From the NCBI GenBank assembly GCA_951812775.1, contig OX638326.1, positions 2,241,391-2,305,390 on the forward strand: DNA of 64,000 nt, written 5' to 3'. Shown here piece after piece: positions 53,895-59,107 of the stretch. A program made the position numbers and the translations under genes. The stretch's first letter is position 1. Each line of letters starts with the position of its first letter. The notes under the pieces were generated by a model. The model saw only the letters and a list, made by a program, of their open reading frames with translations, ran no database searches and was not told where the DNA came from. Origin of the DNA: an uncultured Alphaproteobacteria bacterium. GTDB lineage: Bacteria > Pseudomonadota > Alphaproteobacteria > MPNO01 > UBA2964.

Positions 53895-54018
53895 TAATTT
53901 TCTCCCATCCCAATAAATTTAACCGGGGATATTCACCCCAGCATCACTTGTGCAGTAATAAAGTATACCTAAGCAAGAAGTGTGCCAAGTTCTGTATATG
54001 TTACCAACGGGTAGTGGG

Positions 54019-54903
54019 TCAGTTTGAAATATCTTTCTTGTAAGAGCCGCGCTTCGTCGGCTTGGCCGCTTCCGCAGCTTCCAACAGTTTCACAATGTCT
54101 TTCATATCCCATAGCGTATCGGAAACGCCAGCGGCCATAGCTGGTGACATACGAAGTGTTTTGTGCATCCGAACGAAATTGTAATACATCATGTGAAACG
54201 CAACAGCGTGTGCATGGTTTTCGACCTTCTTGCTGAAACCATTTGTCAGGCGGGTAAAGCGGCGCATGTGCATCCGCATGGTTAGGTTGCTGCGCTCGAC
54301 ATAGGATGTGCTGACCAGCTTTTTGTCAGGCTCACCCTCAATCCGGTGCTTCTTGATGCCGGTGCATTCAGCGGGGCTGTAGCGACCTTTGGAACTTTCC
54401 GGCGCGTTGCCATACATCTTGACCTGTTGCGCATAGTCAACATCGGCTCCGAACGCCCCTTCAACAGCTTCAAGATATGACTTGTGACCGTCACTGGTTA
54501 GCTGGACACGATTGGCAAGGCGGCTACGCAGATCATCCATAAACCACATTGCATATTCGGCATCGCGGCCACCGACCAGATAGGATACGATCATTTTGCT
54601 ATCAGCATCAATCGCGGTCCACGTCCAAGTGTCGCCAGCATTGGCGGGAGCGGCCTTTGCGGTTTTGACGTTCTTTTGTTTGGCATAGGTGAATGACCAG
54701 ATTTCATCGACTTCGACACGGGTTGTTTTCAAGTTGCGGACATTGGCCTCGTGATAGGCCGCACATGCTTTGCCAACGTCAATCAACAGCTTTGATATTG
54801 TGTTCTTGCTGACGCCTGTCATCCGCACGATCGAGCGGATGCTGTTACCCTCGCAAAGCATGTGCAAAATTCTTGATCGTTGTTCTGATGATAGCTTGTT
54901 CAT
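54019..54903 (-). CDS. IS1-family DDE transposase (single-ORF type)
   Basis: N-terminal HTH, VEVDEIWSF...WTAIDADSK...LTSDGHKSY...ERSNLTMRMHMRRFTRLTNGFSKKVENHAHAV parallels the IS1 InsB DDE region. 294 aa. Confidence 0.7.
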   Translation of the reverse strand: MNKLSSEQRSRILHMLCEGNSIRSIVRMTGVSKNTISKLLIDVGKACAAYHEANVRNLKTTRVEVDEIWSFTYAKQKNVKTAKAAPANAGDTWTWTAIDADSKMIVSYLVGGRDAEYAMWFMDDLRSRLANRVQLTSDGHKSYLEAVEGAFGADVDYAQQVKMYGNAPESSKGRYSPAECTGIKKHRIEGEPDKKLVSTSYVERSNLTMRMHMRRFTRLTNGFSKKVENHAHAVAFHMMYYNFVRMHKTLRMSPAMAAGVSDTLWDMKDIVKLLEAAEAAKPTKRGSYKKDISN

Positions 54904-55028
54904 AGGGATTTTATAACTGACCCTTTTTACTTAGTTAAGCACTACAGTCAGTTTAGGGATATAAAATACACTAGGTGGGTGAATCAGGGTGTTGACCTTT
55001 CATTATCCGGTAATTATGGTGATTCCGC

Positions 55029-55325
55029 ATGAAAGTTGATTACGCAGACAAGCGCCTCGGCAGGATTGCAACAGACGAAGCGCACAAGCTGGGTCTACCG
55101 ATTTCGGTAATCAACAGTGCGCGGAAGAAGATCGTTCTTTTGGAGCAAGCGCCTGATGAAAGAACAATTAGAAACTGGAGATCGTTGAATTTTAAGAAAT
55201 TACGTGGCGACAGAGACAATCAAAAATCAATTCGGGTTAACGACCAATACCGCATCATTTTTACGCTCGATAATGACGAGCATCCGCCACGAATAACGAT
55301 TTTGGAGATTGATGATACACATTAG
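55029..55325 (+). CDS. higB: HigB-like toxin (RelE/ParE superfamily, plasmid-maintenance killer type)
   Basis: ...LNFKKLRGDRDNQKSIRVNDQYRIIFTLDNDEHPPRITILEIDDTH matches the HigB C-terminal signature. Toxin lies upstream of the antitoxin, the HigBA order. Confidence 0.7.
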   Translation: MKVDYADKRLGRIATDEAHKLGLPISVINSARKKIVLLEQAPDERTIRNWRSLNFKKLRGDRDNQKSIRVNDQYRIIFTLDNDEHPPRITILEIDDTH

Positions 55326-55337
55326 AATTGGGGTAAT

Positions 55338-56465
55338 ATGAGCAATGGAAATTACATGATTGAAGTGCCGCATCCCGGTGAATTTATTGCTGATGAATTG
55401 GAAGCGCGGGACTGGTCGCAGCGAGACCTTGCCTATATTTTGGGCACAGCTGAAAACAGCGTCAACATGATCGTGACTGGCAAGCGGGGCATAAGTCCTG
55501 AAATGGCCAAGGTGCTCGGTGCCGCTTTTGATGTTAGCCCTGAGTTTTTTGCGAATTTGCAGAAGGCTTATGAAATGTCACGAGCAACAGCACCGGACCC
55601 AGGCATCGCACGTCGCGCACAGTTTCAAAACGTCTATCCTATTCGCGCTATGATTCAGCGCGGATGGTTGGAAGATACGGAAGTGCCGCTTCTTGAGGGA
55701 CAGTTGATGCGGTTTTTCGGCTCCAATAGCGTTGAGAACATCCCGCATTTGGCTCACGCTGCAAAGAAAACCAATTATGACGGGACAACACCTGAACAAC
55801 TCGCTTGGCTTTATCGCGTAAAGCAAATTTGTTCTGAAATGCCCACCCCGCGCTACTCCAAAAAGGCGCTGGTAAAAGCCGTTTCGGAAGATTTGCCAGC
55901 GTTAATGGGAGACCCAGAGGGCGTCCGCCATGTTCCCCGCATCTTGAATGAATGCGGTGTTCGGTTTGCTATCGTCGAGACACTGCCAAAGGCAACCATT
56001 GATGGTGTTTGTTTTTGGGATGGAGCAAAGCCGATGGTTGGCATGACCACCCGCTTTGATCGTATCGACAATTTTTGGTTCGTCCTGTTTCACGAACTCG
56101 AACACGTTTTGAATGAAGATGGAAGGGTTGGAAAATCCATTAATATTGATGTGGATTTGAAATACGACCAGTCTGACGATCAACCAGAACAGGAGCGAAA
56201 AGCTAACCTTGCCGCTGCGAATGCGTGTGTCCCCACAAAGGACTTAGAATCTTTCTATCTTCGTAAAGCCCCTTTCATCTCGCAAAGAGACGTGATCGGC
56301 TTTGCGCGTCGAATTAACCGGCATCCCGGCATTGTTGTCGGACAGCTACAGTGGAAAATGGACCGTTATAACTGGTTGGCGAAACACAAAGTGAGCGTCC
56401 GAAAATTTATTGCTCAAAGTGCAATTACAGATGGTTGGGGCATCCCGGCACCAGTCACAATTTAA
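55338..56465 (+). CDS. HigA-like XRE-HTH antitoxin fused to an ImmA/IrrE-type Zn-metallopeptidase domain (M78, COG2856)
   Basis: N-terminal HTH (HPGEFIADELEARDWSQRDLAYILGTAENSVNMIVTGKRGISPEMA). C-terminal domain with HExxH (LFHELEHVL). 375 aa. Confidence 0.65.
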   Translation: MSNGNYMIEVPHPGEFIADELEARDWSQRDLAYILGTAENSVNMIVTGKRGISPEMAKVLGAAFDVSPEFFANLQKAYEMSRATAPDPGIARRAQFQNVYPIRAMIQRGWLEDTEVPLLEGQLMRFFGSNSVENIPHLAHAAKKTNYDGTTPEQLAWLYRVKQICSEMPTPRYSKKALVKAVSEDLPALMGDPEGVRHVPRILNECGVRFAIVETLPKATIDGVCFWDGAKPMVGMTTRFDRIDNFWFVLFHELEHVLNEDGRVGKSINIDVDLKYDQSDDQPEQERKANLAAANACVPTKDLESFYLRKAPFISQRDVIGFARRINRHPGIVVGQLQWKMDRYNWLAKHKVSVRKFIAQSAITDGWGIPAPVTI

Positions 56466-56476
56466 GGAAATAGAAA

Positions 56477-56950
56477 ATGGCATCTTACGACGAACAACTA
56501 CAAAACGTATGGCACGAATACGAAAAAGAAAAAGGATTTATCCCCGCAACATCTAAAGACGCGGTTAGATGGGGTGTCGAGCGTGGTATGATTGAAATGC
56601 CAGAAATAGACCCGTTTGACGAACTATCCAAGGATATGTCGCGGGCTTTGCGCGAAGAGTATGGCACGGATCGCTACGGTCGTCGGTATCGCAAAAACCA
56701 TGCGGGAAGGGTTACCAAGGCGGGCGTTCAGCATACTATGTGGGCAATCATGGGCAATGCTCCGCTTGACCACATGCGGAAGGCTTTCGTGCAGCGTCGG
56801 GAGCAAATTGTGGGCGACTGTGTCCAGTTAGCTACCGATGTTGAGGTTTACAACGATATGAACCCTGAACAGGAAGGCGTTCAGATTCCGTTCGATTTCA
56901 CTGATGATGTGGACGAACGTTTGCTGTTCGACGGCGGCAAGGCGGCCTAG
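56477..56950 (+). CDS. hypothetical protein with no recognised domain, co-directional with the higBA-peptidase module
   Basis: 157-aa ORF whose start overlaps the upstream region by 12 nt. Confidence 0.4.
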   Translation: MASYDEQLQNVWHEYEKEKGFIPATSKDAVRWGVERGMIEMPEIDPFDELSKDMSRALREEYGTDRYGRRYRKNHAGRVTKAGVQHTMWAIMGNAPLDHMRKAFVQRREQIVGDCVQLATDVEVYNDMNPEQEGVQIPFDFTDDVDERLLFDGGKAA

Positions 56951-57174
56951 TCTTTTTTCTTCCAACGAGCCTGTGCGGCTGTTTTGGCAATTTCAGAACG
57001 TTGCGCTGGTGTTAATGCTTTGGCACGGGCTGGACCGCCTTTCTTTCCAGCTTTAGAAGCGCGTTCCCCGGTTGCCGTTTCTTCCGCATCTTCTTCTTCA
57101 CTGGATGCAATATCCACCATCAGCTTTGCAAGCTGGTTGGGATCGCGGGGTCGTTTGGGCTTTTTGTCTGCCAT
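56947..57174 (-). CDS. small basic Lys/Ala-rich hypothetical protein (possible nucleic-acid-binding)
   Basis: MADKKPKRPRDPNQLAKLMVD...LTPAQRSEIAKTAAQARWKKKD. 76 aa. Confidence 0.35.
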   Translation of the reverse strand: MADKKPKRPRDPNQLAKLMVDIASSEEEDAEETATGERASKAGKKGGPARAKALTPAQRSEIAKTAAQARWKKKD

Positions 57175-57456
57175 AGACTCTATATAGGGTGGTATGCAGA
57201 AAATTGCAGAGCTAAATTTCAAACTGACCCACTACCCCAACGGGGGGATTTGACAGGAAATATTGTTAGATTTCAACAAATTGATTAGTTTTTTTGGAAA
57301 ATGCCCGTAAACTTCGAAAATCTGTACTAAAGAGAATTTGTCGCAGATCAAGACGGGAAACGACCGGTCCCCTCGGCACACACCAAAGACCGACCGAGGA
57401 AGCTGGTTTGGCAGCATAGATTTGGGTGCAAAACCTGATCGAGGAAGTATTAGTTA

Positions 57457-57720
57457 ATGGCCGCAGAACGTAAAAAAGAAATTCTCCTTGTTGAAGATAC
57501 CGCGCTCCTTGCCAAGAGCTATATTCAGTATCTTCGCAACGACCCCTATACGGTCACGCATGTCGCCACCGGCAAGGAAGCCCTGAAACATCTTTCTTCA
57601 AATATGCTGGACTGCATATTGCTGGATCTGGAATTGCCCGACATGACCGGGCTCGAAATCATGGAAAAGATCGGCAGCGGACGACTTCGCACAGCGCTCA
57701 GCGGAAAGACAAGCCGTTAG
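57457..57720 (+). pseudogene. response-regulator receiver-domain fragment (N-terminal ~85 aa only)
   Basis: ILLVEDTALLAKS...DCILLDLELPDMTGLEI is the first half of a REC domain. No output domain follows. Confidence 0.5.
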
Positions 57721-57730
57721 AGGCAATCAG

Positions 57731-58522
57731 GTGGATCAGAGAAATCCGAATCCCGAAACGAGTCTGGATCACGAAGGTGAAACACATGACTCCACCATTT
57801 CCAGAAAGGAACTGAAAAAAGCGGCTGAAGCGCGAAAACTCAACAGCGCAATTCAAACGATGAAAGGGCATGTGAAAAGCTTCGGGCGGAGAAATCTATC
57901 GGATGCGGAAACGAATTTGGAACATTTTCTCTCCGCCACGGGTAAGGACAGAGTGCTTACGCGCAAACAGGCTCGAAGCCATGAAGCCGTCCGGAATCTA
58001 GAAGCAGACATCAGAAAACAGCTAGAAAACAGTTTTTTTACCATCTACGCGGAAAAGGACGAAATACAATCAAAAAACGAGCGCAAACTAAATGGAATAA
58101 AGGATGGTCAGTCGATCACTCTCAACAGTCGAACTGTTTCCAACCATGGTACTGGTAGTTTTTTATTGGACCACGGGCTTGGCATGGAACCTTTCGGGCG
58201 TGATCCAAACTTCGCGCTGGGGTTTGGACAAATAAGACTCTTTTCTGATGCCTAATTCACCGCGAAGCGAACGGGCAAGCGCGTGGAAATAACAGGCACC
58301 GTCCAACACAATTGGAATGACACATATGATTTTGACGACGGACAGCCCGGTTTCGAAGAAGCCAAATTACTCCTAGACGAAGGCATGGCAAAAGAATTTT
58401 CTATACGCGCCAACTGGCGGCAAAAAGTGACTGCTACCTACCGCCTTGAAAATGGCGAATTAAAGCTCGAAGGAACAAAATGGGAGGACATAGATGATGC
58501 CGGAAAAGAAAAACCCGATTAA
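57731..58522 (+). CDS. unrecognised ORF pair (174 aa and 79 aa) in one frame separated by a single TAA at 58253..58255, within an AT-rich island
   Basis: Read directly: ...GFGQIRLFSDA*FTAKRTGKRVEITGTVQHNWNDTYDFDDGQPGF... . No recognised domain. Confidence 0.3.
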
Positions 58523-58615
58523 ACCCATAATCAATAAACTATCTTTCCAGCTGAGTTACTGCTGGAATCGCTGGCCTAAATCGACCATCACACTGGACGC
58601 TGCTTCGATCATTTT

Positions 58616-59107
58616 GTGTGTTTTTTTGTGCCGATGTGGCCACATAAACCCTTTTGCAACGGTCGTGTCTATATTGACACTGGCAAAAAGGGACATGGTA
58701 GATTTAAAACTAATGAAGAATACACAGCTTCTTACCATGTCTATCACTACCGCTTAGTACCCGGCCCTCTTTCTGATCCGTATGTGGACAAGATCGTCAA
58801 TACTCTGGACTATTGGAAGGTTTTATATATCAGAATCGGCAACATAATTCTTATCCCAGGCTATCGAACCGGTTTCTTCGACAACGCTATAGGCGTCTGG
58901 AGCATAGTAATTATAAAAGACCTCTATAAAAATCTTATGAGTGGCCGGATTACATACCCGACGCCTATGCCGCCAAAAATTCGCGAACTAATGGAATTCG
59001 ATATCAGTAAATACAAAGATTACCCTAGAGAAGTAAAAGGCATAGAATACTGCCAAACTGGTATTCCCAAGGCACTCGCCATCAAAAATTGGGGGCTGAA
59101 AGAATAG
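58616..59107 (+). CDS. hypothetical protein with no recognised domain, in an AT-rich island
   Basis: 163-aa ORF. Low-GC codon usage that differs from the flanking core genes. Confidence 0.3.
   Translation: MCFFVPMWPHKPFCNGRVYIDTGKKGHGRFKTNEEYTASYHVYHYRLVPGPLSDPYVDKIVNTLDYWKVLYIRIGNIILIPGYRTGFFDNAIGVWSIVIIKDLYKNLMSGRITYPTPMPPKIRELMEFDISKYKDYPREVKGIEYCQTGIPKALAIKNWGLKE

Follow-up and report, generated by a model that had tools for sequence, protein, structure and literature searches.

The window analysed here, a stretch of 64,000 nt of contig OX638326.1 (positions 2,241,391 to 2,305,390) of an uncultured alphaproteobacterium, contains three co-directional genes coding for a HigB-like protein, a protein in which a HigA-type helix-turn-helix (HTH) domain is fused to an M78-type peptidase domain (hereafter the fusion), and a protein of 157 amino acids (aa). 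Their open reading frames (ORFs) form a single tight operon on the forward strand, henceforth called the cassette. The cassette is the cargo of an intact transposon of the insertion sequence (IS) family IS1, which has been inserted independently in many bacterial phyla. The 157-aa protein represents an undescribed family, a new third component that is the obligate partner of HTH::M78 fusions. The coordinates of all features are collected in Table 1.

Domain identities of the HigB-like protein and the fusion

The HigB-like ORF matches the Pfam family HigB-like_toxin (PF05015) with an E value of 5.7e-9 (36.8 bits, cut-off 27), its nearest solved structure is that of GraT, a toxin of the HigB family (6f8s_B, 7e-7), and its core motif SIRxNDQYRxxF as well as the C-terminal D-x-H are kept among relatives. 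In the fusion, residues 18-71 match HTH_3 of Pfam (E 3.4e-7) and residues 215-309 Peptidase_M78 (PF06114; E 2.3e-6, 27.8 bits, cut-off 22), the protein scores 54.3 bits with the NCBIfam HigA model TIGR02607 (cut-off 47.7), and CapP is the only structural neighbour of its C-terminal part in fold comparison. Features of a HigBA module are thus present in the form of a RelE-fold HigB-like gene upstream and a HigA-type Xre HTH in the fusion gene; such fusion proteins are labelled 'HigA family antitoxin' at NCBI, and the M78 domain of the homologues is often missed by precomputed Pfam annotation.

The motif LFHELEHVL occupies residues 250-258 of the fusion (nt 56085-56111). The conservation of the peptidase site was assessed in the fusion genes from 80 related loci, with products 39-74% identical to the window protein; H252, E253, H256, E286, A289 and N290 are invariant in 81/81 fusion homologues, as are D261, G262 and D271 within residues 257-285. 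The invariance of HExxH...E in itself demonstrates no more than selection on catalysis. A CapP-like cysteine-switch mechanism was also considered and was dropped, the sequence giving no support to it.

These results agree with an earlier sequence-only reading of the locus, whose coordinates for the three ORFs proved exact and which had named the HigB and HigA-HTH domains (HigB-like_toxin, HTH_3 and TIGR02607 all score above their cut-offs), had taken the C-terminal domain for M78-like (the Pfam threshold is passed and the structure resembles CapP) and had expected its HExxH residues to be conserved among homologues. The same reading presented the HTH::peptidase fusion as a departure from the standard HigA, and in this it was mistaken, the fusion architecture having been known since 2009, when Makarova et al. 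(PMC2701414) listed Xre-COG2856 fusions in linkage with toxins of the RelE and PIN types and predicted that three-component systems exist. Systems combining a toxin with an HTH::peptidase fusion have been described before, by experiment as well as by computation.

The 157-aa family and its linkage to the fusion

The 157-aa protein of the window has no match in Pfam, NCBIfam, PADLOC or PHROGs and no recognisable fold match, and 35 diverse members of its family gave nothing consistent in Pfam or PADLOC. The ORF, noted in the sequence-only reading as co-directional and unrecognised, does lack a database match, yet it is a real conserved gene: the family comprises 665 clusters at 90% identity, nearly all of 153-161 aa; with clustering at 50% identity and E<=1e-3 their number is 1,060. 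None of the best 150 among these 1,060 representatives exceeds 232 aa; most are stand-alone proteins of 150-230 aa, fragments excepted, and the idea that the 157-aa protein is a domain of larger proteins was dropped on account of their shortness. R72, W89 and R108 are invariant in the family, together with a GRRYR-x-NHA patch, and there is no invariant His, Cys or Ser or other catalytic signature, so that the protein is not enzyme-like in look.

Gene order was compared in two samples, one of 80 genome loci (Alphaproteobacteria, Nitrospirota, Acidobacteriota and others) and the other of 80 loci from metagenomes, belonging to a subfamily with an identity of only 30-38%. The collection was scanned with a sub-alignment; the full, very diverse alignment had no conserved stretch. 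The 157-aa gene is immediately preceded by the fusion in 75/76 genome and 59/60 metagenome loci, i.e., in 134 of the 136 testable ones, and the sole exception in the genome sample is a split gene. The HigB gene lies directly upstream of the fusion in 71/76 genome and 51/56 metagenome loci (122/132). The spacer between the stop codon of the fusion and the start codon of the 157-aa gene measures 6-12 nt in 59 loci, and the operon anatomy is conserved in more than 130 loci. The linkage of the three genes, or at least of two of them, is obligate, and the near-constant gene order supports the three-component idea of the sequence-only reading. The 157-aa protein is also the most conserved of the three, with a median identity of 60%, the values for the fusion and HigB being 55% and 53%, respectively. 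Since the cassettes without HigB keep everything else, the invariant core consists of the fusion and the 157-aa protein.

Only one locus of the 136, L154 (metagenome contig Ga0070678_100069416, 2096-2551), has a 157-aa-family gene with no fusion upstream; an opposite-strand ORF of 345 aa is found in its place. The HigB-less variant of the element comprises the transposase, the fusion, the 157-aa gene and the small basic gene described below, its repeats and target duplications being intact. It is represented by L085 (Methylocapsa pRX1), L086 (M. loti p_1), L175-L180 (metagenome-assembled genomes of Sphingomonadales), L051, L061, L067 and L077.

The IS1-family transposon

The whole element (54010-57236, ca. 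3.2 kb) holds the transposase gene, the three cassette genes and one small gene. Its terminal repeats are perfect over 21/22 nt (21/21 complementary), with 2 matches in the window against 0 expected by chance. Both ends start with GGTAGTG, which fits GGnnnTG. This is the consensus of IS1-family termini (ISfinder; Siguier 2015), and the target-site duplication of the family is 8-9 bp long. The transposase of the window matches DDE_Tnp_IS1 of Pfam (34.9 bits, cut-off 24.1, covering profile positions 81-125 only) and HTH_38, scores 63.8 bits with the NCBIfam IS1 equivalog, which is under its cut-off of 100, and has homologues named 'IS1 family transposase' in RefSeq and JGI. The GGnnnTG tips, the 8-bp duplications described below and the database names fit the IS1 family. 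A two-frame transposase of the InsA/InsB' type with a programmed frameshift was not found, the gene being a single ORF, and the enzyme fits the single-ORF IS1 subgroup rather than classical IS1. Classical IS1 is ca. 0.8 kb long and makes use of an InsA/InsB frameshift. The window element differs from it in its size, in the single-ORF transposase devoid of this frameshift, and in four extra genes.

Equivalent terminal repeats enclose an equivalent gene set in more than 40 other loci, and 33 of 42 related repeat pairs are flanked by a perfect 8-bp direct repeat, each of a different sequence, which shows that the unit, 3.2-4.9 kb long, has repeatedly transposed as a whole. A relative with a 97% identical fusion protein sits at an unrelated site with a duplication of its own. 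The flanks in the window read TACCAACG and CCAACGGG; here the 8-bp frames mismatch and a 6-bp CCAACG abuts both ends, and two extra G in the G-run of the left junction would restore an 8/8 duplication. The terminal repeats in the window and the 8-bp duplications in its relatives confirm that the module is part of a mobile unit, as had been supposed from the letters of this stretch. A small IS1-type transposon thus moves such a cassette as a unit, with dozens of independent insertions proven by target duplications; in the literature searched, no paper describing an IS1-family (or IS1595) element with such cargo was found.

Two further observations concern related elements. L171 (3530-6761 of a 71-kb ENA contig) is a decaying copy with the transposase split into three short ORFs and no HigB called; its terminal repeats and 8-bp duplication CAGATTCT are intact, and the fusion, 157-aa and 75-aa genes are kept. 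Alike terminal repeats and a 66% identical transposase are found in L170 (Hoeflea sp. plasmid NZ_CP011481.1, 1555-5778) and L169 (an Acidiphilium plasmid). The cargo of the 4.2-kb L170-type element comprises a 395-aa XRE-family regulator and four hypothetical genes, and the element is flanked by a perfect 8-bp duplication GATGATTG. With such different cargo, this IS1 clade apparently serves in general as a vehicle for cassettes of the regulator or toxin–antitoxin (TA)-like kind.

Table 1. Features of the IS1-family element and its cassette, in window coordinates (pI, isoelectric point)
Feature	Position	Strand	Remarks
CCAACG direct repeat, left copy (imperfect target-site duplication)	54004-54009	.	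abuts element end
Terminal inverted repeat GGTAGTGGGTCAGTTTGAAAT	54010-54030	+	transposase 3' end of element
IS1-like DDE transposase	54019-54903	-	single ORF, 294 aa, N-terminal HTH
Divergent control region	54904-55028	.	ca. 125 bp between start codons
HigB-like (RelE-fold) toxin-type protein	55029-55325	+	98 aa, pI 9.4, basic
HigA-type HTH (ca. residues 8-85) :: M78/CapP-like zinc peptidase	55338-56465	+	375 aa; HExxH 252-256, E286
Acidic protein, family previously undescribed	56477-56950	+	157 aa, pI 4.95; obligate partner downstream of fusion
Basic protein, IS backbone	56947-57174	-	75 aa, pI 9.85; C-terminus ...AARARWKK
Second terminal inverted repeat, ATTTCAAACTGACCCACTACC on + strand	57216-57236	-	repeat search
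CCAACG direct repeat, right copy	57237-57242	.	abuts element end

The fifth gene of the element appears in the mechanical ORF list with 91 aa, extending up to 57222; its true start is M17, where conservation begins, and it was called as 75 aa. It is convergent with the 157-aa gene, the two overlapping tail-to-tail by 4 nt (CTAG). Both the 75-aa gene and the transposase gene are present in 47 loci, neither in 17, the transposase alone in 3 and the small gene alone in 0, so the 75-aa gene belongs with the transposase and not with the cassette. Its product may be an accessory DNA-binding protein of the IS. It has the conserved motifs KRPRDxNQLAK at the N-terminus and LTPEQRSEIARxAAxARWKK at the C-terminus; in one case a homologue is annotated as 'histone H1', and there is a match to PHROG 2384, function unassigned there.

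The control region between the transposase gene and higB

The region separating the two divergent genes is conserved across 35 aligned loci and contains, in this order, a GTCAAGCAT box (GTTAAGCAC in the window, 54934-54942), whose complement provides the transposase gene with a TTGAC -35 element, a copy of the terminal-repeat core GGTCAGTTTA (GTCAGTTTA in the window, 54947-54955) situated between the two -35 boxes, the palindrome ACGCATGGCGT, and the TTGAC -35 element for higB. A promoter scan found the promoter-like site TTGACC-17-TATGGT (54992-55020) for higB, with a -10 element that ends 8 nt short of the ATG, so that higB probably gives rise to a leaderless message. The predicted -10 elements of the transposase gene and higB both end ca. 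7-8 nt from the start codons, so that both messages are apparently leaderless. A degenerate inner repeat lies at 54910-54923, and in some loci a truncated inward-facing repeat adjoins the transposase start; this looks like what remains of one end of an ancestral, minimal IS. In the position of a TA-type cassette adjoining the transposase promoter, the element is similar to Tn3-family elements, whose toxin–antitoxin passengers were reportedly described by Lima-Mendez and co-workers in 2020.

Cassettes without the transposon

The transposase is absent from 36 of the 99 cassette loci with enough flanking sequence (17 + 19). An IS-free cassette is carried by a Paraburkholderia plasmid, beside restriction and Abi genes, and another by the temperate Achromobacter phage CF418P1 (L167, OQ817832.1; 2663-4590), where it adjoins the integrase. 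Found on a plasmid, in a phage and in these 36 loci without the IS, the cassette is an autonomous, self-sufficient module. In CF418P1 a gene of 95 aa is accompanied by homologues of the fusion and of the 157-aa gene, with identities of 45% and 37%, respectively, and the site corresponds to a moron-like position, typical of prophage-borne defence genes.

Relation to PD-lambda-2 and other systems

The cassette is similar to PD-lambda-2 of Escherichia coli ECOR42, a three-gene abortive-infection system validated experimentally against phage (Vassallo et al. 2022, PMC9519451). PD-lambda-2 comprises a HigB-like protein A, a HigA-HTH::peptidase B and a protein C 'related to a P4 phage antitoxin'. 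On overexpression it is B, expressed alone, and not A that proves toxic, the reverse of the polarity in HigBA; A relieves this toxicity, and defence requires C (PMC9519451). In the literature searched, no later mechanistic work on this system was found. Both systems have three co-directional genes in identical order and with the same domain logic. The comparison was based on PADLOC profiles with positive controls from plasmids, one of which, the Acinetobacter HigB (L084), matches PD-Lambda-2_A at 6.8e-49. Residues 4-359 of the window fusion match the PD-Lambda-2_B profile over positions 51-397 of 402 (E 4.5e-44), at 149 bits as against 232-497 bits for true members, and the window HigB comes from another HigB subfamily. 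PD-Lambda-2_C is a P4 'beta family' protein of ca. 365 aa, unrelated to the 157-aa family. It was identified as such owing to L174 (Sulfitobacter plasmid NZ_CP136691.1, 2722-5104), where a 440-aa XRE::peptidase gene overlaps that of a 363-aa 'beta family protein', beside HipBA; this is a PD-lambda-2-type B + C pair with no HigB annotated. The possibility that the 157-aa protein is a shortened PD-Lambda-2_C/P4 beta was rejected, as hhalign of the 157-aa family profile against the true C from L174 (PD-Lambda-2_C 3.4e-23) gave a probability of 0.1% and the lengths are 157 and ca. 365 aa.

A TA system with a similar 'protease-gated' logic is VapBC52 of Mycobacterium tuberculosis (NAR 2026, PMC13273310), in which the toxin gene is likewise paired with that of an antitoxin, VapB52, composed of an Xre-HTH and an IrrE-family HExxH peptidase. 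Self-cleavage of VapB52 on single-stranded DNA (ssDNA) was shown, the release of the toxin being the authors' inference. VapBC52 differs from the cassette in that its toxin is a PIN RNase and not a RelE-fold protein, in the Cys 'switch' ligand of VapB52, which is absent from the window family, and in having two genes with no obligate third partner. The cooperation of an M78/COG2856 zinc protease with an Xre-family HTH is also common to CapH/CapP, ImmR/ImmA and DdrO/IrrE. Rosmer (RmrT/RmrA) is another defence pair with a zinc-peptidase partner, and weak PADLOC matches to RmrA were obtained (residues ca. 200-306, E 0.005-0.04); these are marginal, however, and there is no RmrT-like gene.

Proposed function and alternative explanations

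With moderate confidence, we regard the cassette as a protease-gated tripartite TA-type module, a sister of PD-lambda-2, serving abortive infection and/or retention of the element; the identity of the toxic protein, the target of the protease, the trigger and the role of the 157-aa protein we infer mainly from the systems described above. The three genes form one operon, with the 157-aa gene ca. 10 nt past the stop codon of the fusion, which would be expressed from the predicted promoter abutting the higB start. By homology to HigA, the HTH of the fusion would bind the control region and autoregulate the operon, and the fusion and the HigB-like protein would, as in PD-lambda-2 and classical HigBA, keep each other inactive in a complex. 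The HExxH...E site may be that of a protease of the ImmA/IrrE/CapP type, latent until a signal activates it. In response to, e.g., ssDNA or damaged DNA arising in phage infection or under stress, the protease would cut the fusion itself or its partner, and the cleavage would break the complex and lead to growth arrest, as VapB52 and CapP suggest. In view of the obligate synteny, the 157-aa protein is probably a required accessory, i.e., a sensor, adaptor, substrate or inhibitor, playing the role of the P4-beta-like protein in PD-lambda-2. For the transposon, the cassette would be a retention or defence cargo helping the element to persist after insertion. The earlier proposal of a 'protease-gated TA or abortive-infection switch' appears, by analogy with PD-lambda-2 (PMC9519451) and VapBC52 (PMC13273310), to be the most plausible one.

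Several observations weigh against such a function. HigB is absent from ca. 8% of otherwise intact cassettes, which rules it out as an indispensable effector. The 'cysteine switch' of CapP and VapB52 is not conserved, residues 257-285 of the fusion, between H256 and E286, being devoid of Cys. With 27.8 bits the fusion matches M78 weakly, and it gives no match to the PADLOC capP model. Relatives conserve the palindrome ACGCATGGCGT, of which the window has a degenerate version. The HigB proteins of the window and its orthologues in L081 and L167 match no PADLOC PD-Lambda-2_A model at E<=0.1, and the 157-aa protein of the window has no match to PD-Lambda-2_C, nor have the 35 family members at E<=1. 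With the A and C models unmatched, the cassette is a sister system with a swapped third component, outside PD-lambda-2 as currently defined, and as only one of its three proteins matches the models, PADLOC-type rules and current defence finders would miss the locus.

The same absence of HigB is what gives weight to a different arrangement, in which the fusion and the 157-aa protein are the real two-partner core, either of them being the effector and the other its controller, with HigB as an add-on modulator that most lineages have acquired. It is this pair that does not vary, constraint among the three proteins is strongest on the one of 157 aa, and elements lacking HigB, e.g., L086 and L077, are intact in their transposase, repeats and duplications. 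Against it, HigB is present in 92% of loci, the invariant residues R72, W89 and R108 of the 157-aa family give no catalytic signature, and the protein is acidic, as antitoxins are, and has no fold match; on balance we consider this arrangement rather unlikely. The pattern of conservation is least compatible with a plain HigBA addiction module, with HigB as an mRNA-cleaving toxin, the HTH of the fusion as a labile antitoxin and post-segregational killing as the means of stabilising the transposon or replicon; neither the peptidase domain nor the 157-aa gene would then contribute anything essential. Such a module would agree with the HigB-like_toxin and TIGR02607 scores above curated cut-offs, the toxin-first order typical of HigBA, the conserved SIRxNDQYRxxF and D-x-H of HigB, and the carriage on plasmids, a phage and the IS. 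However, the peptidase site is invariant in all 81 homologues, the 157-aa gene is kept in 134/136 loci and is better conserved than HigB (medians of 60% vs 53%), the component that is lost is HigB and not the other two, and in PD-lambda-2 the toxic partner is the fusion. It is therefore the worst fit among the rival explanations, and its probability is judged low.

Two further explanations place the fusion in control of the transposon. In one, it acts as a switch of the ImmR/ImmA style, repressing the divergent promoters of the transposase gene and the cassette until DNA damage makes it inactivate itself, with the result that stress induces transposition. The divergent promoters with only ca. 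50 nt between the -35 boxes, the conserved palindrome ACGCATGGCGT and the copy of the terminal-repeat core lying between them are consistent with this, as are the control of a mobile element by ImmR/ImmA in such a manner (PMC2701414) and the long XRE-family regulator among the other cargo of the IS clade. The cassette is, however, frequently found without the transposase (36/99 loci, and also on a plasmid and in a phage), so that regulation of the IS cannot be its primary function, and the degenerate palindrome of the window copy also speaks against it; as the main function of the cassette it is improbable. The other explanation joins both functions and is quite improbable as well: the fusion could be a damage- or phage-sensing switch common to the cassette and its vehicle, operating on the control region of ca. 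125 bp, the firing of which would both free the toxicity and de-repress the transposase, with the 157-aa family as a new sensor or effector subunit for HTH::M78 switches. An attack on the cell would then cause the IS1 element either to move or to kill its host.

The cassette adds a large, phylum-spanning sister branch to PD-lambda-2. What is new in it is the third-component family, a make-up that defence-finder models would miss, and the widely dispersed transporter element of the IS1 family on which it travels. It offers a compact natural system for asking why transposons carry TA or defence cargo and how protease-gated antitoxins get triggered, and in practical terms a new hidden Markov model for annotation and a 3.2-kb construct open to direct testing.

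Other features of the window

Just outside the transposon, the region 57238-59107 has a low G+C content of 0.44-0.49, compared with 0.53-0.56 around it. Besides three orphan ORFs with no family match (57731-58255, 58283-58522 and 58616-59107), it holds a truncated response-regulator receiver of 87 aa (57457-57720, profile positions 1-65 of 111), and is possibly the remains of another acquired island, situated between an OmpA-family gene and pgk/gap. On the other side of the element, the complementary strand carries an ORF of 682 aa (49546-51594) made up of Gly/Asp-rich nonapeptide repeats of the GGxGxD type, the product of which looks like an RTX-like calcium-binding secreted protein.

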